DNA of 64,000 nucleotides from a virus. Taxonomy: Duplodnaviria; Caudoviricetes. The notes beneath the pieces were generated by a model. It was not told the DNA's origin. It saw only the letters and a program-made list of their open reading frames with translations, and searched no databases. The stretch spans positions 34,419 to 98,418 of the IMG/VR virus record IMGVR_UViG_3300043364_000002. The stretch is one strand, 5' to 3'. Below, piece by piece: positions 4,776 to 53,093 of the stretch (the stretch's first letter is position 1; every line of letters starts with the position of its first letter). Both the position numbers and the translations under genes were made by a program.

Positions 4776-5477
4776 ATGGCCGACTCCTTCGGGGCGGAGA
4801 GCATCCCGCTTCAGGCGGCTCTAGCCGGTGAAGAGATTGCCGACCCAGCGGTCTCGAGGCTGGCGAATTACTTCCAGGCAGTCGTCAACGCCCACGCTAC
4901 TGATCGCTGGCAGACCGTCATGCCGAATAGCGTGCCGGTGAAAAATGCTTTTACGCACAACCCTGAAGAGTTGTCGTTCAACGAACGCGATCTGCCTTCG
5001 CTCTGGCTCAACAGAGTTGGCGAGGATGCACTTGAACGACATGCCGAGGACTTCGACCTCGCTCACGTCAACCTTCGACTCTTGTGGGTTTTCCCGCCGG
5101 TGCGGCAGGAGTTTCAAAAGACCCGCGCAACATTCGCGAACGGCATCGCCCACATCTTGGCTCACTGTATCGAGCTAGGTCGAGATCCTTCCTACGTGTT
5201 CCCTGGCGATCCTGACCCAACGGCCGCTGCGCAAGGGAGCGTCATCATGCGAATCGCTGGGCTCTGGGAGCTCAAGTGGAACGGCTACAAATCCGGCCTC
5301 GGTCTGCCCATCAAGACGACGTCGGATACGCGGAACTACTACTGCCTTGACGCAAAGATTGGCATCACCGAACGGCGCGTTCTTGACATCGTCGCCGATT
5401 TCCCGGCCGTGCGCGGCCTCGACCTGACCATCACCACGCCCGACAAGGCGAGAGACCTCGCGGTCGGAAAGCTGTAA
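4776..5477 (+). CDS. Putative tail terminator/neck protein
   Basis: Position before the sheath gene, DLPSLWL motif, AGGAG RBS. Confidence 0.45.
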   Translation: MADSFGAESIPLQAALAGEEIADPAVSRLANYFQAVVNAHATDRWQTVMPNSVPVKNAFTHNPEELSFNERDLPSLWLNRVGEDALERHAEDFDLAHVNLRLLWVFPPVRQEFQKTRATFANGIAHILAHCIELGRDPSYVFPGDPDPTAAAQGSVIMRIAGLWELKWNGYKSGLGLPIKTTSDTRNYYCLDAKIGITERRVLDIVADFPAVRGLDLTITTPDKARDLAVGKL

Positions 5478-5481
5478 GGAC

Positions 5482-6012
5482 ATGGCCAAGAAATTCCTAC
5501 TCGTCTACCCGAACCCGTTCATCGCGCTCGATCACGATGGTTTTCCGGCTGGCGCTTGCCAGTGCGACATGGCCGAGCACGTTGGCATGACGTCGCGTCG
5601 CTGGGTCGGCGCCGAGCTCGACGACAAGGCAACGTTCCTGCTCGAGAAGCTGTCGACGGAAGAGCTTCGTTACCGAGACGCGCGGCAGCAGACGCGGTTC
5701 CGATTCGATTTCAGTGAACCTACCCGCCTACCGGTGACGGAGTACTACCGGGACCGTTTGCGGCACAGCGAGATTCTGTGTGCCGACGAGGCCACGGCCA
5801 AGCTTGCCGGGCTCAAGTTCGTGGCTCCAGCGGAAGCGCTCGCGAAGGCCAAGGCCGACGCTGCAGCGAAGTGGATCGCGATGATGGGCCCAGGGGAGAA
5901 GCCGGACGGTATCGACTTGCTCGACACGGCCATGGCGGCCATCGGCGCTTCGCCAGCGGCAACGCCGCCCACCAAGTTTGAAACTCCCAAGTCCACCAAA
6001 GAGGTGAAGTGA
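5482..6012 (+). CDS. Hypothetical protein
   Basis: Tightly packed ORF with TAAGGA RBS. Confidence 0.6.
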   Translation: MAKKFLLVYPNPFIALDHDGFPAGACQCDMAEHVGMTSRRWVGAELDDKATFLLEKLSTEELRYRDARQQTRFRFDFSEPTRLPVTEYYRDRLRHSEILCADEATAKLAGLKFVAPAEALAKAKADAAAKWIAMMGPGEKPDGIDLLDTAMAAIGASPAATPPTKFETPKSTKEVK

Positions 6013-35639: not shown

Positions 35640-35753
35640 CGCACCCCAACAGCCTTACGTAACCGCCGGCCACGCCTCCTACCCTCCTGGGTTGTGCGTG
35701 GCTCGGCGGTCCTTTTCAGCCGCCTTCGCCTTCGGGTGAGGGCGGCTTTTTTT
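35640..35753 (+). ncRNA. Candidate small structured RNA
   Basis: 14-bp stem 35662-35710 with CU-rich loops, followed by an intrinsic terminator. TTGACA at 35612. Confidence 0.4.
35718..35753 (+). terminator. Rho-independent terminator
   Basis: AGCCGCCTTCGCC-TTCG-GGTGAGGGCGGCT then T run. Confidence 0.85.
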
Positions 35754-37795: not shown

Positions 37796-38050
37796 TCACG
37801 ACGCCATCTCCTCTTCCAAGCCAAGCCCGGGGCCGAGCATTCCGACGCACGCCGCGCGGTCCCAGACCATCCAGTCCACGATAGCGATTCTCAGCTCACG
37901 AATGGCTTCGTTCCTGTCGGCGTCGCTTTTGCTGTTTTGGTATGAAAGCACGGCCCTGTTGACTTGCATCGGAGCGTACCAACCTTCGTTCTCGACGAGG
38001 AACGACATGCAGATGTCGGCCATGGCGTAGGTGACGCGGAAGCGGCTCAC
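37796..38050 (-). CDS. Hypothetical protein
   Basis: GTG start overlaps the upstream TGA. Confidence 0.5.
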   Translation of the reverse strand: MSRFRVTYAMADICMSFLVENEGWYAPMQVNRAVLSYQNSKSDADRNEAIRELRIAIVDWMVWDRAACVGMLGPGLGLEEEMAS

Positions 38051-38194
38051 GACGCCACCGCCGTTCGGCCGTTACGGGCCAGGATGGCAGCGCGTTCGCC
38101 TTCGGGATGCTCGAGACGCACGTGGCTGTAGAAGTTGACATGAAAAGTAGTCGCTCTGGATGTCCGAGCCGTCGAAGTTGTAGTTCGTGTTCAT
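38047..38194 (-). pseudogene. Frameshifted small ORF (LPD29-like motif)
   Basis: Removing one base of the A run at 38143-38146 gives MNTNYNFDGSDIQSDYFHVNFYSHVRLE..., whose stop overlaps the next start. Confidence 0.55.
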
Positions 38195-38203
38195 GTTGGG
38201 ATC

Positions 38204-38223
38204 CTATTGCGAGAGCTGTGCCA
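38204..38223 (-). promoter_or_regulatory. sigma54-type promoter P1
   Basis: TGGCACAGCTCTCGCAATAG, ATG 14 nt after GC. Confidence 0.8.
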
Positions 38224-38230
38224 GCGTTCC

Positions 38231-38557
38231 TCAGTGATCGCCGGCCGGGCCAGCGCGGTAGCCGTCTGCCATTACAAGGTAGCCGGGGACGACGTCTAAG
38301 TAGGTGACGAGCGTCGTTCCCTTGATCCGTTCGCGGGTTACGCGTGCGATCGTGGCGGTGTAGTGGATGACGGCTTCCTCCACATCGGCAATGGTGACGC
38401 CAGCCGCCGCTAGGTCGTCGTCTGTCACGATGGCGTGGATTCGGTCCTTCCAGTCGCCACGGAGGCTCTTGACGCCGTATAGCGCCATAACGGCGGCATT
38501 GGGCGCCGGGGTGACGAGGTCGAACGCGGTACCGAGCTTGTCTTGGTTCGTTTGCAT
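38231..38557 (-). CDS. Hypothetical protein (cassette P2)
   Basis: DWKDRI...VEEAVIHYTAT...ADGYRAGP, leaderless start. Confidence 0.7.
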   Translation of the reverse strand: MQTNQDKLGTAFDLVTPAPNAAVMALYGVKSLRGDWKDRIHAIVTDDDLAAAGVTIADVEEAVIHYTATIARVTRERIKGTTLVTYLDVVPGYLVMADGYRAGPAGDH

Positions 38558-38565
38558 GACGGAGG

Positions 38566-38585
38566 CTATTGCTAGCGCCGTGCCA
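38566..38585 (-). promoter_or_regulatory. sigma54-type promoter P2
   Basis: TGGCACGGCGCTAGCAATAG, ATG 13 nt after GC. Confidence 0.8.
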
Positions 38586-38597
38586 GCGGCTCAGCGC

Positions 38598-38987
38598 TTA
38601 TGCCGACAACGCCTCAGGTAGTTTGGCGACCTGCAATTCCACCGAGAACGATCGGTAGTAGTCGTTCCAGGTGACGCTCAGAACGGCAGCGTTGCCCGGC
38701 AGGTCGCGCACTTCCTGGTCGTTGTTGGAGCCAGCGTGAACAGCCCAATCACCACCGGACACGTGAAGCCTTCCACTTAGTTCCATGGTTTCGAGGTTGA
38801 GCGCGTAACGCCGCCCGCATTCGAAGTCGTGGACAACCATCGGCGATACCGTGTCGGTGAACGTTACCGACTTGGGGCAGCGCTGCGTTGTGCCCGTATC
38901 GGCCTTGATGGCCGGCCAGATCTTGCGGAAGCCGGGAAGAAGCGTCTCGATGTCGGCTAGCTTGGCGATTCGGAAGGTCTTGTTCAT
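38598..38987 (-). CDS. Hypothetical protein (cassette P3)
   Basis: Start ATG 38987 is fixed by promoter spacing. Confidence 0.7.
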   Translation of the reverse strand: MNKTFRIAKLADIETLLPGFRKIWPAIKADTGTTQRCPKSVTFTDTVSPMVVHDFECGRRYALNLETMELSGRLHVSGGDWAVHAGSNNDQEVRDLPGNAAVLSVTWNDYYRSFSVELQVAKLPEALSA

Positions 38988-38995
38988 GTCCTGGG

Positions 38996-39015
38996 CTATT
39001 GCTAGCGCCGTGCCA
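38996..39015 (-). promoter_or_regulatory. sigma54-type promoter P3
   Basis: Identical to P2, ATG 13 nt after GC. Confidence 0.8.
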
Positions 39016-39048
39016 GCCACGGCTGGGCCGTTAACCGATTCTATGCAT

Positions 39049-39214
39049 GGGCAATGTAATTTCTGTTCAGTGAACTGTCCGGTGGCCGTACGAGTGTCAC
39101 GTTACAGGTGTCCGCTGACACGGCCGTCATCGGACAAATCGTTCAGTACCCTTAACGTGCCGTTCAGTGGTCTAGCCTTCTTGGGTGGCGGAATAGTGGC
39201 CAGGGCAATGTTTT
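39049..39214. promoter_or_regulatory. Candidate shared enhancer region
   Basis: TGTCCG at 39076 and 39109, CGGACA at 39131, GTTCAGT three times, GGGCAATGT at 39049 and 39203. Confidence 0.5.
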
Positions 39215-39230
39215 TGGTGTTCTGGTAGGC

Positions 39231-39250
39231 TGGCACGCTGCTCGCAATAG
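39231..39250 (+). promoter_or_regulatory. sigma54-type promoter P4
   Basis: TGGCACGCTGCTCGCAATAG, ATG 13 nt after GC. Confidence 0.8.
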
Positions 39251-39258
39251 CTACCGAT

Positions 39259-39456
39259 ATGGAAACGACAACGACGAAGCTCGAAGAAGCCGCACAGGAA
39301 TTGGCCAATGAAACCGGCTGCCCCATCACGGTGGCTCGCGCTGGAATCCGCATGGAACTGGCACGCTGCCTCGCCGGAATCGGCGCCATGACGCCAGAAC
39401 AGGCTAACCAATACCTCGCCGACTGCGGAATTCCGGTTCAGCTGGTTCGCAAGTAG
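39259..39456 (+). CDS. Hypothetical protein (cassette P4)
   Basis: 65 aa, no SD. Confidence 0.65.
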   Translation: METTTTKLEEAAQELANETGCPITVARAGIRMELARCLAGIGAMTPEQANQYLADCGIPVQLVRK

Positions 39457-39460
39457 ACAC

Positions 39461-39480
39461 TGGCACGGATCACGCAATAG
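39461..39480 (+). promoter_or_regulatory. sigma54-type promoter P5
   Basis: TGGCACGGATCACGCAATAG, ATG 13 nt after GC. Confidence 0.8.
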
Positions 39481-39488
39481 CCTAAGCC

Positions 39489-39707
39489 ATGAACGCCGAC
39501 ACGAAACTGGTCCTCCTCTTCAACAAGTGCTGCGACCCCTCACGCGCGGCCCGCGTCCACGCGCCCGAGTGCGCCATGGTGAACACCGCCAAAAACGGCC
39601 GGCGCGTCTCCAAGGAAGAGGGGACGCTGGCCGAACTACAGGCGTCAATCGACGACCTCAACGAGCGCGAGTTCCCGGTCAAGTTCTGCAAGTGCTGCAA
39701 GGCATAG
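39489..39707 (+). CDS. Small Cys/His zinc-binding-like protein (cassette P5)
   Basis: VHAPEC...FCKCC. Confidence 0.65.
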   Translation: MNADTKLVLLFNKCCDPSRAARVHAPECAMVNTAKNGRRVSKEEGTLAELQASIDDLNEREFPVKFCKCCKA

Positions 39708-39708
39708 T

Positions 39709-39728
39709 TGGCACGGATCACGCAATAG
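39709..39728 (+). promoter_or_regulatory. sigma54-type promoter P6
   Basis: Identical to P5, ATG 14 nt after GC. Confidence 0.8.
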
Positions 39729-39737
39729 GAGTCAGAC

Positions 39738-39956
39738 ATGAAGACGACGAAAAGCGGTTTCCAGGTTGGCGCGACGGTGGCTTTCAACGCTGACCTCGCG
39801 GACATGTTCCCGAGCTGCATGAACACCATCTGGACGGTCGTCGATTGCCGCCTGTCGCCCGTGTTCGGGTATACCTACACGCTCTCGGAGCCGAACGGCT
39901 CGCTCGAGAACGTCTCGGCGGATGACCTCCGCGAAGTTGGCACGCCGCGCGCATAA
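39738..39956 (+). CDS. Small SH3/KOW-like protein (cassette P6)
   Basis: FQVGATV...WTVV...YTL...VSADDLREV pattern. Confidence 0.6.
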   Translation: MKTTKSGFQVGATVAFNADLADMFPSCMNTIWTVVDCRLSPVFGYTYTLSEPNGSLENVSADDLREVGTPRA

Positions 39957-39957
39957 G
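39938..39957 (+). promoter_or_regulatory. Degenerate sigma54-type promoter P6b
   Basis: TGGCACGCCGCGCGCATAAG, GG-N10-GC, ATG 39966 is 13 nt after GC. Confidence 0.65.
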
Positions 39958-39965
39958 GAACGAGC

Positions 39966-40124
39966 ATGGACATCAACAAGATGAATCGGGCCGAGCTGGA
40001 AGTAGCGATCCTCGAAAACGACGTCCCCTGCGACCCGAGCAAGGTTATCAAGATGACGGACGACGAGGTCCGCGCCTTCCTCGCCGCCTGGATTGAAGCT
40101 GGCGACGAGTGTGCCGGCTGCTGA
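39966..40124 (+). CDS. Small acidic protein, 52 aa (cassette P6b)
   Basis: Not in the ORF track. MDINKMNRAELEVAILENDVPCDPSKVIKMTDDEVRAFLAAWIEAGDECAGC. Confidence 0.65.
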   Translation: MDINKMNRAELEVAILENDVPCDPSKVIKMTDDEVRAFLAAWIEAGDECAGC

Positions 40125-40144
40125 GCCGTGGTAGACGGGATCCC

Positions 40145-40378
40145 ATGGCAATGGAACGAGCGAAGGTAGTCGCGGCGCTTGTAGACGAGCGCGCCTATGA
40201 CGGCGCCACGACGCCAGTGGAGCGCGCCAGGCTCGTGTCCGGGCTGACGTGGCAGGCGTTCGACACGGCGGCGCTGGAGCTCGCCAGGGCGGGCGCGATC
40301 GTGCTCCTGAAGGGTCCGTGCCGCTATCCGATTGTCGATGCCGGCGGGGTCGCTTACGCGCGGGCTGGACTCGTGTGA
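40145..40378 (+). CDS. Small winged-helix-like protein
   Basis: RLVSGLTWQAFDTAALELARAGAIVL pattern. Confidence 0.45.
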   Translation: MAMERAKVVAALVDERAYDGATTPVERARLVSGLTWQAFDTAALELARAGAIVLLKGPCRYPIVDAGGVAYARAGLV

Positions 40379-40483
40379 CCATATAACAAGTGTACCGGTC
40401 AGCTGTCCGGTTAGGTTTACACTTGTCCGGGTCGTGCCGTGTAGGTAACCGGCCTGGGCAATGTTTTAGAGAGATCCGGCCAC

Positions 40484-40503
40484 TGGCACGATGCTCGCAA
40501 TAG
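40484..40503 (+). promoter_or_regulatory. sigma54-type promoter P7
   Basis: TGGCACGATGCTCGCAATAG, ATG 40512 is 13 nt after GC. Confidence 0.8.
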
Positions 40504-40511
40504 TTCCCCTC

Positions 40512-40682
40512 ATGCAAATCAAAACTCGCTGGTCAGACCAAATGATTCTTGAGGCTGTCAAACTGGGTCAGTTCATGACGCGTCCCGCGCTGGACCGAGC
40601 TTTTGAGCTGATTGACCTCGGTTACATCGATGCCGCGGGCACTTGGAAGCTCACCGCTAAGGGTGAGGAGGCGGCTGGGTGA
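40512..40682 (+). CDS. Small winged-helix protein (cassette P7)
   Basis: ELIDLGYID...WKLTAKG motif. Confidence 0.6.
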   Translation: MQIKTRWSDQMILEAVKLGQFMTRPALDRAFELIDLGYIDAAGTWKLTAKGEEAAG

Positions 40683-40897
40683 GCCCCCGTTTCGGGGCGT
40701 GGACGATTGTGCAGCGGCGCGTGTTCTCGCCTCACCCGAGCGGCCGCGCCGTGCGCATGTCGTATCAGGTACATGCGATCCACGACGACGCCGACCCCCG
40801 CGTGGACTTCTGGTCCGCGCGTGTGCCTGCTGGGCCGAACGAATTCCCAACTCAAGCACAAGCGGACATTGAGGCGTTGCGCTTTACTGCGAGTTAG
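40679..40897 (+). CDS. Hypothetical protein
   Basis: GTGA-coupled with GAGGAGG RBS. Confidence 0.5.
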   Translation: MSPRFGAWTIVQRRVFSPHPSGRAVRMSYQVHAIHDDADPRVDFWSARVPAGPNEFPTQAQADIEALRFTAS

Positions 40898-41122
40898 TGG
40901 AATACAGCGTGCCCTACGGTCGCTGGGACATATAGGCGCATGAACTTCCAAAAGAAGTCCCCCGACGACCGCGCGTGGGGCAACGGACATGGGGCTTTCA
41001 GCGGTCGTCTGTCCGGCCACGTGTCCGATTATGTCCGGGTGAGGCGGATACAGTCGATGTAGGCAAGCCTCGATTCGCCACTACGGCCAAGCGCTTCACT
41101 CGCCGGATGCTCTTAATCCTGT

Positions 41123-41142
41123 TGGCACGCTGCTCGCAATAG
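41123..41142 (+). promoter_or_regulatory. sigma54-type promoter P8
   Basis: Identical to P4, ATG 13 nt after GC. Confidence 0.8.
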
Positions 41143-41150
41143 TCCCCATC

Positions 41151-41459
41151 ATGCAAACGATGACGATCTCCGGATACGTGGTTCAGGACAACCGAGGCAA
41201 CGAGCGCATGACCGCAAAGGCGCTTCGCGTCACGATCGACGAGGTCAACGGAGACGACCGCCGCGCCGCCGATTCAATCTGGCTCGCCAAGTCGCTTTGC
41301 ACGAACCTGCGCACAGAGAAGCGCTTCTACGAAGACGGCAGCCACTGGTATGCGTTTACGGCCGAGGTGCCAGCGTGGTGGGTTTTGAGCAAGCTCGACT
41401 TCCGCGCCGCCTGGGAGATCGCCGGCTACACCCGCCCGCCGTCGCCAGTGGGGCTGTAA
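41151..41459 (+). CDS. Hypothetical protein (cassette P8)
   Basis: TAKALRV...IWLAKS...EVPAWW small beta-barrel pattern. Confidence 0.65.
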   Translation: MQTMTISGYVVQDNRGNERMTAKALRVTIDEVNGDDRRAADSIWLAKSLCTNLRTEKRFYEDGSHWYAFTAEVPAWWVLSKLDFRAAWEIAGYTRPPSPVGL

Positions 41460-42135: not shown

Positions 42136-42645
42136 TCATTCTGAGTTTCGGCCGCGAGCGCCTTCGGCAATCCACTTCGCTACGAGCTTGACATCATCAT
42201 CGGCCCAGTAGCCTGTTTTTCCGCCTTTCGGCATTTGATTTGCGTACTGGTATTGCCCCTTCAAAACCTGCACGAGGATCGACTCATCCGGCTTGCCTGG
42301 TATCACGATGCGCGTCCCGCTCGACCCGCCGCCCATGCGCAACGTGCCGAGCGTCTCCAGATTGAGTCCGCCGAGATCGACGCCAAGGTGGCTTGCTGCC
42401 GAGGCATAGTGGCAACTGGCGCACCCGCGAGGAACATCTTTCGGCCCGCGGTTCATCAGCGGCCGGATGTCGTCGCGAAAACTAACGGTGCCCGGAGGCT
42501 CGGCATCGTCACCGCCTTCAGCGGCGCCACCGTCATCGGTCGCGGCGTCGCTGCCGAGCTCGACGCGCCACTGGCCGACATTGGGGTCGAGTTCGGAACA
42601 GCCCACAGCCATCATCGCGATCACGGCAATTCTTGAGCTTTTCAT
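42136..42645 (-). CDS. Lipoprotein with planctomycete-type cytochrome c domain
   Basis: Lipobox MAVGC, VSFRDDIRPL, CASCH heme motif, GGLNL, IPGKPDESIL, MP, WIAEGA. Confidence 0.85.
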   Translation of the reverse strand: MKSSRIAVIAMMAVGCSELDPNVGQWRVELGSDAATDDGGAAEGGDDAEPPGTVSFRDDIRPLMNRGPKDVPRGCASCHYASAASHLGVDLGGLNLETLGTLRMGGGSSGTRIVIPGKPDESILVQVLKGQYQYANQMPKGGKTGYWADDDVKLVAKWIAEGARGRNSE

Positions 42646-43178
42646 GGGTCTTTATTCTCACATCCCGCCGGCGGCGTCGACGGGCACGCGTCGCCATTGC
42701 GGCACGCCTCCGCAATGTCCTCGCTCGTCAGGCAGTTGAGTGACTCGTCGGTGCTCTTCGCCGCCATGATGGCGCGCGGGTCGGCCACGTGTTCGAGCCC
42801 CATCGCGTGACCGAGCTCGTGCGCCAGTATGGTGCTGAGCGGGTCGACGGTGATGTGATCCATCAAGATCACGATCTTCGTCGGTTCGAGCAGACTGCGA
42901 ATGCAGGCGCTCTGCTCGTGAAAATGCTCCTTGAAGTACGGGTCGATGTTGCCAGCGCCGCGCGAGTCGCTTCGGATGATCATGTTTCGGTCGGCCGCCA
43001 CGTCGGAGAACTTGATTCCGAAGATGAGATCGCGGTGCAGCCCCGTCGGCCCCCACAGCGCGGCGCCGAAGCGGATTTGCTCGGACTCTTCGGGTGTGAA
43101 TCTCGAATCTACGTAGTAGAGTTCTGAAAAGCACGCCGTGCAGAGGATCGCTTGCAGCGCCGCGATCAGAATGCGCAT
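42642..43178 (-). CDS. Matrixin-like (metzincin) metalloprotease lipoprotein
   Basis: Lipobox LCTAC, HELGHAMGLEH zinc motif, AIM Met-turn. Confidence 0.85.
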   Translation of the reverse strand: MRILIAALQAILCTACFSELYYVDSRFTPEESEQIRFGAALWGPTGLHRDLIFGIKFSDVAADRNMIIRSDSRGAGNIDPYFKEHFHEQSACIRSLLEPTKIVILMDHITVDPLSTILAHELGHAMGLEHVADPRAIMAAKSTDESLNCLTSEDIAEACRNGDACPSTPPAGCENKDP

Positions 43179-43186
43179 CACGCCGC

Positions 43187-44038
43187 TCACGGAAATTCCG
43201 CGCACGACATCTCGGCGTACGGATACGTATCATTGTTGTTATACGCCTCAACGTGGAGCCACCAGAAGCCCTGAGCTGAATAAATCTGAACCAGGGCATC
43301 GTCAAAGTTGCCCTGAAGACGCGTGAGACCGCAGAATGTTTTAGCTGTGCTGTGCCCTTTCGTTGTCTGGCCTGGCCCAGCGACATAGGTACGCCAGATG
43401 TTGAACGCCCGATTGGGATGAAGACACTTGACCCACGCAGCGAGCGCTGGAGTTCCAATCACTCTCAGCTTCCACATGTTCACAACGGGATCGATACTCA
43501 CAGACTCGACCAGATTCGGGTCGTCCTGCCCGCCAGTAGAAACGCCACTGACACCCGTTATCCAGCAGAAGTTGTCTGGGTAGGGAAACAGATTGATCTG
43601 CTGATCGACGTGCGATCCGCCGGCACTCTCCGGCCAATAGAGCTGGAACGGGTTCACGTCATCCGAGCCGTACGCGCCAGCAGGTAACAAGTAGTTGTGG
43701 AAGGCTTCACATCGCGCCCCAGCCGATGCGAACTCGCCACCGCCATATCCGCCTTGTGGTGAGGCAACGAAGTTGCCCGGCAACACAAGAAACGTCGCTC
43801 CGCTTTTTGGTACTTGATTCGGCCAATTCGGAGATCCAGCATGCGCGAGCGACGCCTGGAAGTACGTCGGTCTGCAAAACTGAAACGACGACGCTGGGAT
43901 CGATCCGTAACCGTTCGTCGTAGTGTAGTCGAGCGTTAGCTCCTGTGATTTCTCGTCCGGCGGCTCGCTGGCTTGGTCGGCGTTGCCGCATGCGATGGCG
44001 AGCAGGGTGAGAATCAAAAACATCAGGCTTCGTTTCAT
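43187..44038 (-). CDS. Lipoprotein (paralog of 34300-35100)
   Basis: MKRSLMFLILTLLAIAC lipobox, shared FC.PT.F.A..AHAGSP, CW..GV.G.S.G and GN.DD motifs. Confidence 0.75.
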   Translation of the reverse strand: MKRSLMFLILTLLAIACGNADQASEPPDEKSQELTLDYTTTNGYGSIPASSFQFCRPTYFQASLAHAGSPNWPNQVPKSGATFLVLPGNFVASPQGGYGGGEFASAGARCEAFHNYLLPAGAYGSDDVNPFQLYWPESAGGSHVDQQINLFPYPDNFCWITGVSGVSTGGQDDPNLVESVSIDPVVNMWKLRVIGTPALAAWVKCLHPNRAFNIWRTYVAGPGQTTKGHSTAKTFCGLTRLQGNFDDALVQIYSAQGFWWLHVEAYNNNDTYPYAEMSCAEFP

Positions 44039-52199: not shown

Positions 52200-53093
52200 T
52201 CAATCCTCGCCAGGTTGTCGCCATCCCGAGTCACCTTCGGCCTTGGTCTTTTCGGCGACCTTGTTCTTGAGTGCGGCCACGTTGCTCTTCGGTTCCTCTG
52301 GCGTAGCGCCACCTGCGGGTCCGTCCTCAATCAGCGACACGTCGATCGTTTGAAGCTCGCCTCGTTCCACGGCCTCGTCCTGAGAGACGGCCTTCGCCAA
52401 CTCGGGAGAGAGCGGAAGGTACTTGCAAAGGCGGCGCACTACCGTCTTGCGCTGCATTTCTGCCGTGTCAGTGACCCACGGCCCATCGTCGGCGGCTTGC
52501 GAACGTTTCCGAATCCGTTCGAGCTCTGGCAGAGTCATGACTTCCACCTGCTCGCCACCGTCCTTGAACGTTGCCTTTGCCCAAACGCAGATGACTCTGC
52601 CTCGATCCTCGACAAGGATGTTGGGGCGGTGTTTGATGGGCTGGGCTCCACCGTATTCGAGGTCGAAAATGTCGTGCTCGTAGACGACGTGAGCTTCGAT
52701 GCATCGGATTTGCCCGCTGTTGCGCGCTAGCCTGATAAGCCCTCTGTAGCCAGGAATACACTGGGCCTCTACTTGCTTCGTGTGCTTGTTACGAAACGGA
52801 ACCAAATAGCAGTCCCCCATCAAGCCACCGACCTCTAGACCCATCTCGGCGCCCTGCATGACGGCGCGAAGAATTGACGCCGCTGAGCACGCGTGAAGAT
52901 CTGGGTTGCGCGACGTCGCCGAAAGCGCGATCTTCACGAGTCTATCGGCTGATAGGTGCTTCGGCGCAACGGCGGCCAAAGACGGGGCCGCCTTCGTTAG
53001 CAGCTCTTTCAAGGTTTGCTGTTTTGCTGCCGTGCCCGTAAGAGGCGCCAGCGACGTGGACGTGGGTTGAGTCATATTCATCTCCTTAGACAT
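52200..53093 (-). CDS. recT: RecT single-strand annealing protein
   Basis: CSAASI, GLE, CYLVPF, GYRGLIRLARNSG, GPWVTD..EM.RKTVVRRLCKYLP. Confidence 0.93.
   Translation of the reverse strand: MSKEMNMTQPTSTSLAPLTGTAAKQQTLKELLTKAAPSLAAVAPKHLSADRLVKIALSATSRNPDLHACSAASILRAVMQGAEMGLEVGGLMGDCYLVPFRNKHTKQVEAQCIPGYRGLIRLARNSGQIRCIEAHVVYEHDIFDLEYGGAQPIKHRPNILVEDRGRVICVWAKATFKDGGEQVEVMTLPELERIRKRSQAADDGPWVTDTAEMQRKTVVRRLCKYLPLSPELAKAVSQDEAVERGELQTIDVSLIEDGPAGGATPEEPKSNVAALKNKVAEKTKAEGDSGWRQPGED

Follow-up and report, generated by a model that had tools for sequence, protein, structure and literature searches.

Nine copies of a 20-bp promoter-like element lie within a 3-kb divergent region of an uncultured soil phage (genome 98,418 bp), each ahead of a small gene. 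From their sequence, spacing, statistics and recurrence in phages and host-type genomes, we infer, with a probability of roughly 0.7, that they are promoters for the host RNA polymerase with sigma-54 (RpoN), producing leaderless mRNAs, dependent on a host enhancer-binding protein and drawn from an expression pattern of a Polyangia-type host. Positions refer to the window, the whole 64,000-nt stretch of DNA analysed, unless the genome is named.

The repeated element and its genes

A pattern search for TGGCACR-N3-CWMGCAATAG re-found the eight consensus copies described in an earlier note on this DNA, on the minus strand at 38204, 38566 and 38996 and on the plus strand at 39231, 39461, 39709, 40484 and 41123, together with its degenerate copy at 39938 (TGGCACGCCGCGCGCATAAG, two mismatches). 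The form YTGGCAC-N7-GCAATAG likewise yields eight exact matches plus the degenerate one. The exact motif did not occur in 100 shuffles of the sequence, and the whole-genome scan that the note had proposed confined all nine copies to the 3-kb region, with none in the rest of the 98,418 bp.

The GG-N10-GC spacing is present in every copy (9/9), as are the TGGCAC and GCA contexts; a pyrimidine precedes TGGCAC at all nine sites and a G follows it at eight. None of the nine sites has the T that the sigma-54 consensus places before the -12 GC; the base there is C, A or G, and native Myxococcota matches that likewise lack the T do occur. Thirteen nt separate the -12 GC from the ATG at seven sites (offset 14, from C to A) and 14 nt at two (39709 and 38204; offset 15), in agreement with the earlier description. 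Gaps of 1, 4, 7 or 12 nt, or an overlap, separate the preceding stop from the next element, also as described. The ORFs behind the motif are indeed mutually unrelated and have a coding-like GC3 (0.61–0.89), but the size of about 50–130 aa given for them does not hold for the leftmost, which is 40 aa as written (range 40–129 aa). The features are as follows.

38996..39015, minus: promoter-like site P-A1, TGGCACGGCGCTAGCAATAG
38598..38987, minus: gene A1, 129 aa; ATG 8 nt past the 20-mer, no SD
38566..38585, minus: promoter-like site P-A2; begins 12 nt past the A1 stop
38231..38557, minus: gene A2, 108 aa, ORFan
38204..38223, minus: promoter-like site P-A3, TGGCACA variant; ATG 9 nt past the 20-mer
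38047..38194, minus: gene A3; ATG at 38194, the unshifted frame stops at 38072 after 40 aa
37796..38050, minus: gene A4, 84 aa; GTG start overlaps the frame-shifted A3 stop (GTGA); no promoter copy
39016..39230, unstranded: IG1, divergent intergenic region; TGTCCG/CGGACA boxes at 39076, 39109 and 39131
39231..39250, plus: promoter-like site P-B1; 20-mer same as P-D1
39259..39456, plus: gene B1, 65 aa
39461..39480, plus: promoter-like site P-B2; 20-mer same as P-B3, begins 4 nt past the B1 stop
39489..39707, plus: gene B2, 72 aa, 6 Cys
39709..39728, plus: promoter-like site P-B3; begins 1 nt past the B2 stop, 9-nt spacer with AGGAG
39738..39956, plus: gene B3, 72 aa
39938..39957, plus: degenerate promoter-like site P-B4; within the B3 3´ end, spanning the B3 stop
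39966..40124, plus: gene B4, 52 aa
40145..40378, plus: gene B5, 77 aa; no promoter copy
40379..40483, unstranded: IG2; TGTACCGG at 40392, TGTCCGG at 40404 and 40424
40484..40503, plus: promoter-like site P-C1
40512..40682, plus: gene C1, 56 aa
40679..40897, plus: gene C2, 72 aa; GTG start overlaps the C1 stop, GGAGG upstream, no promoter copy
40898..41122, unstranded: IG3; CGGACA at 40984, TGTCCG at 41010, 41022 and 41032
41123..41142, plus: promoter-like site P-D1
41151..41459, plus: gene D1, 102 aa

The leftward operon runs on past A4. The A1 protein belongs to a conserved family with 30 homologs, and its confident AF2 model matched no fold in the fold libraries; a 918-bp soil contig encodes the one homolog of D1, which is 87% identical. 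To extend to the TGA at 38047, the homologous reading of A3 has to shift by +1 at the TTTT near 38145, where a contig obtained independently in another soil study agrees with the phage in sequence. Judged by this homology, A3 is a remnant, 5´-truncated and with a broken frame, of a 146-aa family found elsewhere (L149). A doubtful 40-aa ORF (40940–41062) overlaps the boxes of IG3. Comparison of the cargo with Pfam, PHROGs, PADLOC and fold libraries returned nothing meaningful, and the host-takeover or anti-defence role suggested for it earlier is pure speculation.

Translation signals and predicted transcript starts

An SD site is absent from eight of the nine spacers between motif and gene, the exception being P-B3 with its AGGAG; elsewhere in the phage, many genes carry GGAGG or AAGGAG 5–10 nt upstream of the start. 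All nine motif genes begin with ATG, and the other phage genes use GTG and TTG too. Codons 2–5 contain 49% A in the motif genes versus 24% in SD-led genes (P = 1.3e-4). Genes of the same runs that have no promoter copy carry either an SD site or GTGA stop–start coupling.

The -12 element is defined such that sigma-54 transcription starts about 12 nt past the C of its GC. With TGGCAC taken as the -24 box, GCA as the -12 box and the sigma-54 (RpoN) holoenzyme of the host as their reader, the distance of 14–15 nt from the C of the GC to the A of the ATG would set the transcript start 0–3 nt ahead of the start codon, and each small gene would be expressed as a leaderless mRNA. The best reading is a predicted leader of 0–3 nt, with leaderless mRNAs made from host sigma-54 promoters and one promoter per gene. 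Every gene would have its own promoter abutting the previous stop because only a 5´-terminal AUG is translated without a ribosome-binding site, and this coupling to leaderless translation would explain the one-promoter-per-gene layout. The interpretation given in the earlier note is partly supported. Its core, the proposal of self-contained, leaderless units of sigma-54 type, fits every in-silico test run; these looked at the consensus and its spacing, the lack of SD sites, the exclusive use of ATG, A-rich codons at the 5´ ends, unrelated phages with the same layout and the spacing peak in Myxococcota chromosomes.

Alternatively, the motif could work as RNA within a long polycistronic transcript, either through its structure or as a signal for processing or translation. 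No terminators were found between the array genes, so read-through transcripts would include the motif. However, the nine copies have no conserved fold (z-scores of -0.7 to +2.5), the single Rfam match is far below the gathering score, and the conserved positions are those of the DNA -24/-12 element; the probability of an RNA-level role is next to negligible.

Recurrence, hosts and upstream boxes

In each of five other IMG/VR records, 2–6 sites show the ATG spacing of the array, against none for a reversed-pattern control; the records were picked for already having one such site, so that independence holds for the extra sites in them and not for the selection of the records. Across the six records, 27 of 38 loose sites lie 14–15 nt from an ATG. 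No proteins are common to the five records and the source phage, and no close relatives of the latter were found via the large terminase (phage isolates and bacterial genomes) or the portal (IMG/VR).

A GTDB scan for the full motif followed by ATG gave 76 matches, about 23–28 of them in Myxococcota. In eight Myxococcota genomes, TGGCACG-N5-TGCW-Nx-ATG occurred 1, 9, 34, 18 and 8 times for x = 10–14 (controls 0–5), with the peak at the same ATG distance as in the phage array, and these matches fall only in Polyangia-type genomes. Eight non-myxobacterial genomes gave one unbiased match, counted beyond the matches used to pick those genomes. When native N12 sites were fetched, 20/20 ATGs opened ORFs whose lengths run from 70 to over 200 codons; many encode signal peptides. 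The start-codon peak 14 nt past the -12 GC suggests that the Polyangia-type lineage commonly makes leaderless mRNAs under sigma-54. Moreover, the atlas neighbours of a phage protein with a PSCyt1 domain are mostly Myxococcota, and the host is probably a myxobacterium of the Polyangia-type group.

It could be argued that the 20-mer is merely sigma-54-like and is read by an unrecognised phage factor, for instance a sigma-like protein or an RNA polymerase of a novel kind. Annotation is absent for most genes of the phage, an r4-like helix-turn-helix is encoded at genome positions 5374–5460, and the blank Pfam search for a single-subunit phage RNA polymerase (PF00940) is weak, since it matched no control genome either. 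Nevertheless, the motif and its spacing also occur in phages sharing no proteins and in Myxococcota chromosomal genes, a recurrence that points to host machinery, and TGGCAC with GG-N10-GC is the defining sigma-54 signature, all of which renders a phage factor distinctly unlikely. None of the phage proteins matched Sigma54_activat, Sigma54_DBD, Sigma70_r2 or HTH_8. With no detectable phage sigma-54 or AAA+ activator, firing would depend on a host enhancer-binding protein.

The phage does encode RecT (52365–52943, minus strand), as noted earlier, and besides it a YqaJ exonuclease. The repeats might thus be chiefly recombination junctions, as cassette-exchange scars or as substrates for both proteins on short homologies, with promoter activity secondary. 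Promoters are identical in pairs, unconstrained spacer bases included (39461 = 39709 and 39231 = 41123 as 20-mers; 38566 = 38996 over 24 nt), across other contigs the A1 family has four different promoter contexts, and the homology of the A3 remnant to the 146-aa gene begins at the promoter–ATG junction. These circumstantial points make the cassette swapping proposed in the earlier note weakly supported, but they show no recombination event at the repeats. The repeat is without dyad symmetry or an integron-type integrase context, a scar needs no GG-N10-GC, constant ATG distance or host-chromosome recurrence, and the spacer sequences differ in unrelated phages, fitting selection on the consensus positions alone. 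That recombination is the chief function is very improbable. An integron-type cassette array, which has attC inverted repeats behind promoterless cassettes beside an IntI integrase, was rejected: dyad symmetry is absent, the repeat precedes the ORF and follows its orientation on both strands, and the only integrase, 5 kb from the array, is a phage-type tyrosine recombinase.

No hexamer is more enriched than CGGACA across the three long intergenic regions, where it is found 9 times versus 0.40 expected (P = 5.5e-10), and CGGACA/TGTCCG boxes lie 60–155 bp upstream of the three lead promoters. Furthermore, IG1 contains the dyads GTGTCA-N16-TGACAC and TGTCCG-N16-CGGACA and GGGCAATGT boxes at positions 39049 and 39203, and IG2 a GGGCAATGTTTT box at 40456 with TGGCAC 28 nt downstream. 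Similar box clusters precede sigma-54-like sites in two unrelated contigs (G001 and L018). The intergenic regions yielded no IHF or NmpR consensus and, at the tool's thresholds, no sigma-70-like promoter. The boxes are candidate enhancers, which would act on the lead promoters and may serve the internal ones from a distance; they might just as well be phage-repressor operators.

PMC4591121 describes sigma-54 holoenzyme sitting inactive on promoters and many E. coli sites as intragenic, with no known output. By analogy, the array sites might bind holoenzyme mainly as stable closed complexes, serving as roadblocks or silencers of accessory genes, for instance in a prophage. No enhancer-like sequence adjoins six of the nine sites, the internal promoters, and the 39938 site lies within a coding region. 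The fixed ATG distance, the missing SD sites and the A-rich 5´ coding ends fit a start at the ATG instead, and native host signal-peptide genes have the same layout as their sole evident expression signal; roadblocks are therefore unlikely.

Under the preferred reading as host sigma-54 promoters, the layout would copy the native expression pattern of Polyangia-type myxobacteria, and an accessory ORFan gene block near the integrase would be tied to a host signal. A broader and tentative proposal, to which we give somewhat less than even odds, is that enhancer-dependent leaderless genes form an undescribed pattern common to these myxobacteria and their phages, in which the phage borrows the CGGACA boxes of one host activator and the block fires on a host signal, possibly one set off by infection or starvation.

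Significance and known systems

Sigma-54 promoters stay silent until an ATP-driven activator fires them. By keeping a gene block behind such promoters, the phage would delegate its timing to a host signalling pathway. The sequence rule TGGCAC-N7-GCA-N12/13-ATG finds such genes in phages and Polyangia-type genomes, and may help to link uncultured soil phages to myxobacterial hosts. In addition, compact, tightly off, enhancer-gated and SD-free units could be genetic parts for myxobacteria. A literature search found no published start-site maps for the Polyangia-type lineage and no paper on arrays of such leaderless sigma-54 design.

Like enhancer-dependent sigma-54 promoters (glnAp2 with NtrC; NmpR-regulated promoters of Myxococcus xanthus, PMC11841059), the array has YTGGCACG-N4-xxGCA with GG-N10-GC, and its sites are intergenic and point into genes, with repeated boxes 60–155 bp upstream. 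Unlike them, it comprises nine copies in 3 kb of phage DNA, one per small gene, with the start codon at the expected transcript start, a base other than T before the GC, no IHF or NmpR consensus and no detectable phage-encoded activator.

The earlier statement that no phage regulon of this kind had been described is too strong as a general one, since Pseudomonas phage YuA shows sigma-54-dependent transcription (Ceyssens et al. 2008, cited in PMC10914365). In the 2024 YuA transcript mapping, one mapped promoter is linked to a sigma-54-like region (PMC10914365). YuA has no RNA polymerase of its own and uses host sigma-54 for part of its genes; the present phage, with no detectable RNA polymerase, would do likewise. 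YuA infects a pseudomonad, however, and the mapping study reports neither an array nor a fixed leaderless spacing.

Phage morons are small accessory genes with their own promoters, mutually unrelated. The array genes are likewise small, accessory and unrelated genes of a temperate phage, with their own promoters, close to its integrase end; unlike morons, they share one enhancer-dependent promoter type and have no terminators between them.

Lambda cI transcribed from PRM is an example of a leaderless mRNA. Such mRNAs have been reviewed by Beck and Moll 2018 (cited in PMC12754779), and the array genes share with them the absence of SD sites, the AUG start and a predicted 5´ end at most 5 nt from the start. 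Known leaderless genes are mostly sigma-70-driven, whereas those of the array would belong to the sigma-54 class, with a spacing constant within 1 nt in both phages and host genes.

The repeat array and its reading as sigma-54 promoters

The 20-bp element TGGCACR-N3-CWMGCAATAG, described in an earlier note on this DNA, is present in eight copies where that note had placed them, together with a degenerate ninth; the pattern never arose in 100 shuffles, and the whole 98,418-bp genome holds no further copy. The elements and the regions around them are as follows.

38204, 38566, 38996 (-): copies of the 20-mer, leftward
39231, 39461, 39709, 40484, 41123 (+): copies of the 20-mer, rightward
39938 (+): degenerate copy with two mismatches, overlapping the stop codon of the preceding gene
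38047-38194 (-): A3, the leftmost small gene
38598-38987 (-): A1, small gene
39016-39230: IG1, long intergenic region, divergent
40379-40483: IG2, long intergenic region
40898-41122: IG3, long intergenic region

The geometry claimed for the array was borne out. On either side of the 215-bp divergent region, three sites face left and six face right, the GG-N10-GC spacing is exact in all nine copies, and the distance from the C of GC to the A of ATG is 14 nt at seven sites and 15 nt at two. Within runs, the next element begins 1-12 nt past the previous stop or overlaps it. In addition, a pyrimidine precedes TGGCAC in 9/9 copies. The small genes are unrelated to one another, as had been stated, and are coding-like in GC3, while their size range was corrected from about 50-130 to 40-129 aa. 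The lower figure belongs to A3, which is 40 aa long as written and extends to 38047 only if the frame shifts by +1 at a TTTT run. The array is a real and highly non-random feature.

Judged from its sequence, the array most likely consists of host sigma-54 promoters set on leaderless accessory genes. Conservation falls on the positions typical of -24/-12 promoters (YTGGCACG, four free bases, xxGCA). Of the nine spacer positions that separate the GG doublet from the GC doublet, seven differ from copy to copy, the other two (A and C of TGGCAC) being invariant. The base preceding the -12 GC differs from the consensus T, and native myxobacterial sites from the GTDB scan depart from it in the same way. 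An RNA-structure element or Rfam family was considered for the repeat and rejected. An integron-like reading was rejected as well: the repeat lacks dyad symmetry and precedes each ORF.

No detectable match to a sigma-54 DNA-binding domain, a sigma-54 activator ATPase, sigma-70 region 2 or a Fis-type helix-turn-helix was obtained in the phage, and no sigma-70-like sites were called in the intergenic regions at the thresholds of the tool. The search of the phage for a T7-type RNA polymerase was blank, as was its control. Outside the window, positions 5374-5460 (+) of the full record match sigma-70 region 4 (HTH; 24.1 bits) within a 125-aa open frame; region 2 is absent anywhere in the genome, and a 145-aa ORF at genome positions 5382-5819, which lacks the first 8 nt of the match, hit no Pfam family on rescan. 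The product is probably a small DNA-binding protein.

Predicted leaderless starts and cargo genes

By definition, transcription from this promoter class starts about 12 nt past the C of the -12 GC, so the ATG is predicted to fall near +3 or +4. No Shine-Dalgarno (SD) sequence occurs in the 8-9 nt that separate the 20-mer from the ATG, save for AGGAG in a single copy; GGAGG or AAGGAG stands at the usual distance in many of the phage's other genes. All nine motif genes start with ATG, and the A content of their codons 2-5 is 49%, compared with 24% in SD-led genes and 19% genome-wide (P = 1.3e-4). Of the run genes that have no promoter copy of their own, at least two carry other signals, namely GGAGG with a GTGA stop-start overlap in C2 and a GTGA overlap in A4. 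Such a split between motif genes and promoter-less genes is what one would expect if every leaderless gene has a promoter to itself.

The promoter copies form identical pairs, unconstrained spacer bases included, which points to copying within the phage. The A1 family comprises 30 homologs in four different contexts. In this phage A1 has its own leaderless sigma-54-like site; in contigs L145 and L146 a 33-nt, SD-containing leader follows such a site; in L149 the homolog is coupled behind another gene and has no site of its own; and in L143, L144, L147 and L148 there is an SD only. The upstream gene in L149 encodes a 146-aa protein (L149:1070-1510) and has its own leaderless sigma-54-like site. 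A3 corresponds to the last 49 codons of this family, as a 5'-truncated, +1 frame-broken remnant whose homology begins at the promoter-ATG junction. The extra base lies in the TTTT run near 38145, and the sequence is identical in a contig from a second soil study. On these comparisons, the contexts of A1 and A3 fit mosaicism bounded by promoters.

The L145 and L146 contig (L145:1-12408) is phage-like, with 71% GC and 12 sigma-54-like sites over 12 kb, almost one for each small gene, at ATG distances of 14-18 nt; it also encodes a stand-alone 103-aa Fis-type HTH protein (PF02954; L145:927-1238). The cargo genes gave nothing meaningful or above threshold against Pfam, PHROGs and PADLOC, and the confident A1 model (pLDDT 88) had no fold match at E <= 0.001 in PDB or BFVD.

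Boxes in the intergenic regions

CGGACA/TGTCCG is the top-enriched hexamer of the three long intergenic regions and is present in all of them, with 9 occurrences where 0.40 would be expected (P = 5.5e-10, uncorrected for the roughly 2,000 hexamers). These boxes, found 60-155 bp upstream of the lead promoters, include a dyad, TGTCCG-N16-CGGACA. They are candidate enhancers; alternatively, they may serve as operators for a phage repressor. The same half-site lies upstream of sigma-54-like sites in two unrelated phage contigs, as a dyad CGTGTCCGAT...ATCGGACACG in G001 and as three full and one partial CGGACAAGTGT(C/A)C repeat units in L018.

A second box, GGGCAATGT, has three of its four genomic copies here, at 39049-39062, 39203-39216 and 40456-40469, each followed by an A/T-rich run; at two lead promoters, such a box lies exactly 28 nt ahead of TGGCAC. 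The intergenic regions contain no match to the IHF consensus (WATCAANNNNTTR, up to 1 mismatch) or to the NmpR site (GCGCA-N5-TGCGC, up to 2 mismatches). Two unrelated phage records, G001 (L110, near 26925) and G005 (intergenic region, L113:8378-8530), both carry TAAGTCGTTGAT(T/C), a match to the reverse complement of the IHF consensus, adjoining their divergent sigma-54-like promoters; this phage has no site of that type.

In Myxococcota genomes, the enhancer unit GGACAAGTGTCC matched solely coding DNA reading Asp-Lys-Cys-Pro in Asp-rich repeats, which we read as thrombospondin type 3-like; such matches are uninformative on enhancers. The native N12 promoters fetched from Myxococcota have no CGGACA clusters and thus belong to other regulons. 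A literature search on GGACA and Myxococcus enhancer-binding proteins found nothing relevant.

The phage, its probable host and comparable layouts

The IMG/VR record, of which the window covers bases 34419-98418, has direct terminal repeats and was judged complete; GC content is about 62%. Its plus strand encodes the large terminase, a Mu-type portal, a head protease, a beta clamp, a DnaB helicase, a primase and a DNA methylase. Since a tyrosine integrase, a YqaJ exonuclease, RecT and an RNase T-like exonuclease are encoded on the minus strand farther along the window, the phage is probably temperate. A strong intrinsic terminator (35718-35747, +; 13-bp stem, then a T run) closes the long rightward structural block just ahead of the leftward accessory operon. 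Just right of the array, 42136-43205 (-) holds two host-like genes; the product of one (169 aa) has a PSCyt1 (planctomycete cytochrome c) domain, that of the other (187 aa) a matrixin-type zinc peptidase motif.

Among phage isolates, the array region had no megablast match and the large terminase only 24%-identity matches; no relatives emerged through the portal in IMG/VR or the large terminase in GTDB genomes. Identical DNA was found in soil metagenomes of two studies, one run possibly being the source of the record, and contigs from two soil DNA runs carry the array with zero variants. Among the sequencing runs listed as containing this DNA, none was an RNA run.

Scanning 185,579 GTDB species genomes for the motif plus ATG yielded 76 matches, near a rough chance estimate of about 70. 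About 23-28 were in Myxococcota, where many of the ATGs start long ORFs with signal-peptide N-termini. The spacing was then counted in Myxococcota.

Matches to TGGCACG-N5-TGCW-Nx-ATG in eight Myxococcota genomes (68 Mb); x, nucleotides between TGCW and ATG
x = 10: 1 match; reversed-pattern control, 4
x = 11: 9 matches; reversed-pattern control, 2
x = 12: 34 matches; reversed-pattern control, 0
x = 13: 18 matches; reversed-pattern control, 1
x = 14: 8 matches; reversed-pattern control, 5

The peak at x = 12 equals the phage's own spacing. All 34 of its matches come from Polyangiaceae, Kofleriaceae, Labilithrix and unclassified myxobacterial genomes, with none in Corallococcus or Archangium, and 20/20 native sites fetched open ORFs of 70 to >200 codons. 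Eight non-myxobacterial genomes (42 Mb) gave five matches, four being those by which the genomes were picked. In the atlas, most neighbours of the small PSCyt1-domain protein come from Myxococcota. With moderate confidence, we take the host to be a Polyangia-type myxobacterium and the phage layout to be a copy of a native host design.

A separate locus, TGGCACGAC(G/A)CG(C/A)GCAATAGGTCCCGGC, is conserved in about eleven Corallococcus species (L034, L043, L051, L056, L061, L065, L067, L071, L079, L101, L102); its ATG mostly opens just a 15-codon ORF (MTASAKEAAPPGDQK), and it may be a leader peptide or a small-RNA start.

In IMG/VR, the motif plus ATG returned 22 loci, and several high-GC contigs had extra sites beyond those that the search pattern demanded. 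Five such records hold 2-6 sites each at the same ATG distance, the reversed control pattern giving none, and 27/38 loose TGGCA[CT]-N7-GC[AT] sites in six records have an ATG at 14-15 nt. In G001, as in this phage, a divergent intergenic region is flanked by sites on both sides, three pointing left and two adjacent ones pointing right. Because these records have no proteins in common with this phage, the resemblance would reflect common host machinery rather than common descent.

A distinct arrangement, unlike this array, occurs in low-GC (35-53%) viral contigs (L016, L019, L020, L022, L021, L023, L025, L029), where two sigma-54-like sites overlap head to head in a near-palindrome, TTGGCACG-N4-TTGCAATAGCAA-N4-CATGCCAA (e.g. 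L016:6996-7030), often with several close together.

Literature searches turned up no description of phage sigma-54 arrays or of myxobacterial leaderless genes driven by sigma-54, and nothing relevant on myxophages with sigma-54 or on sigma-54, leaderless mRNA and phages together. In Pseudomonas phage YuA, part of the transcription is reportedly sigma-54-dependent (PMC10914365).
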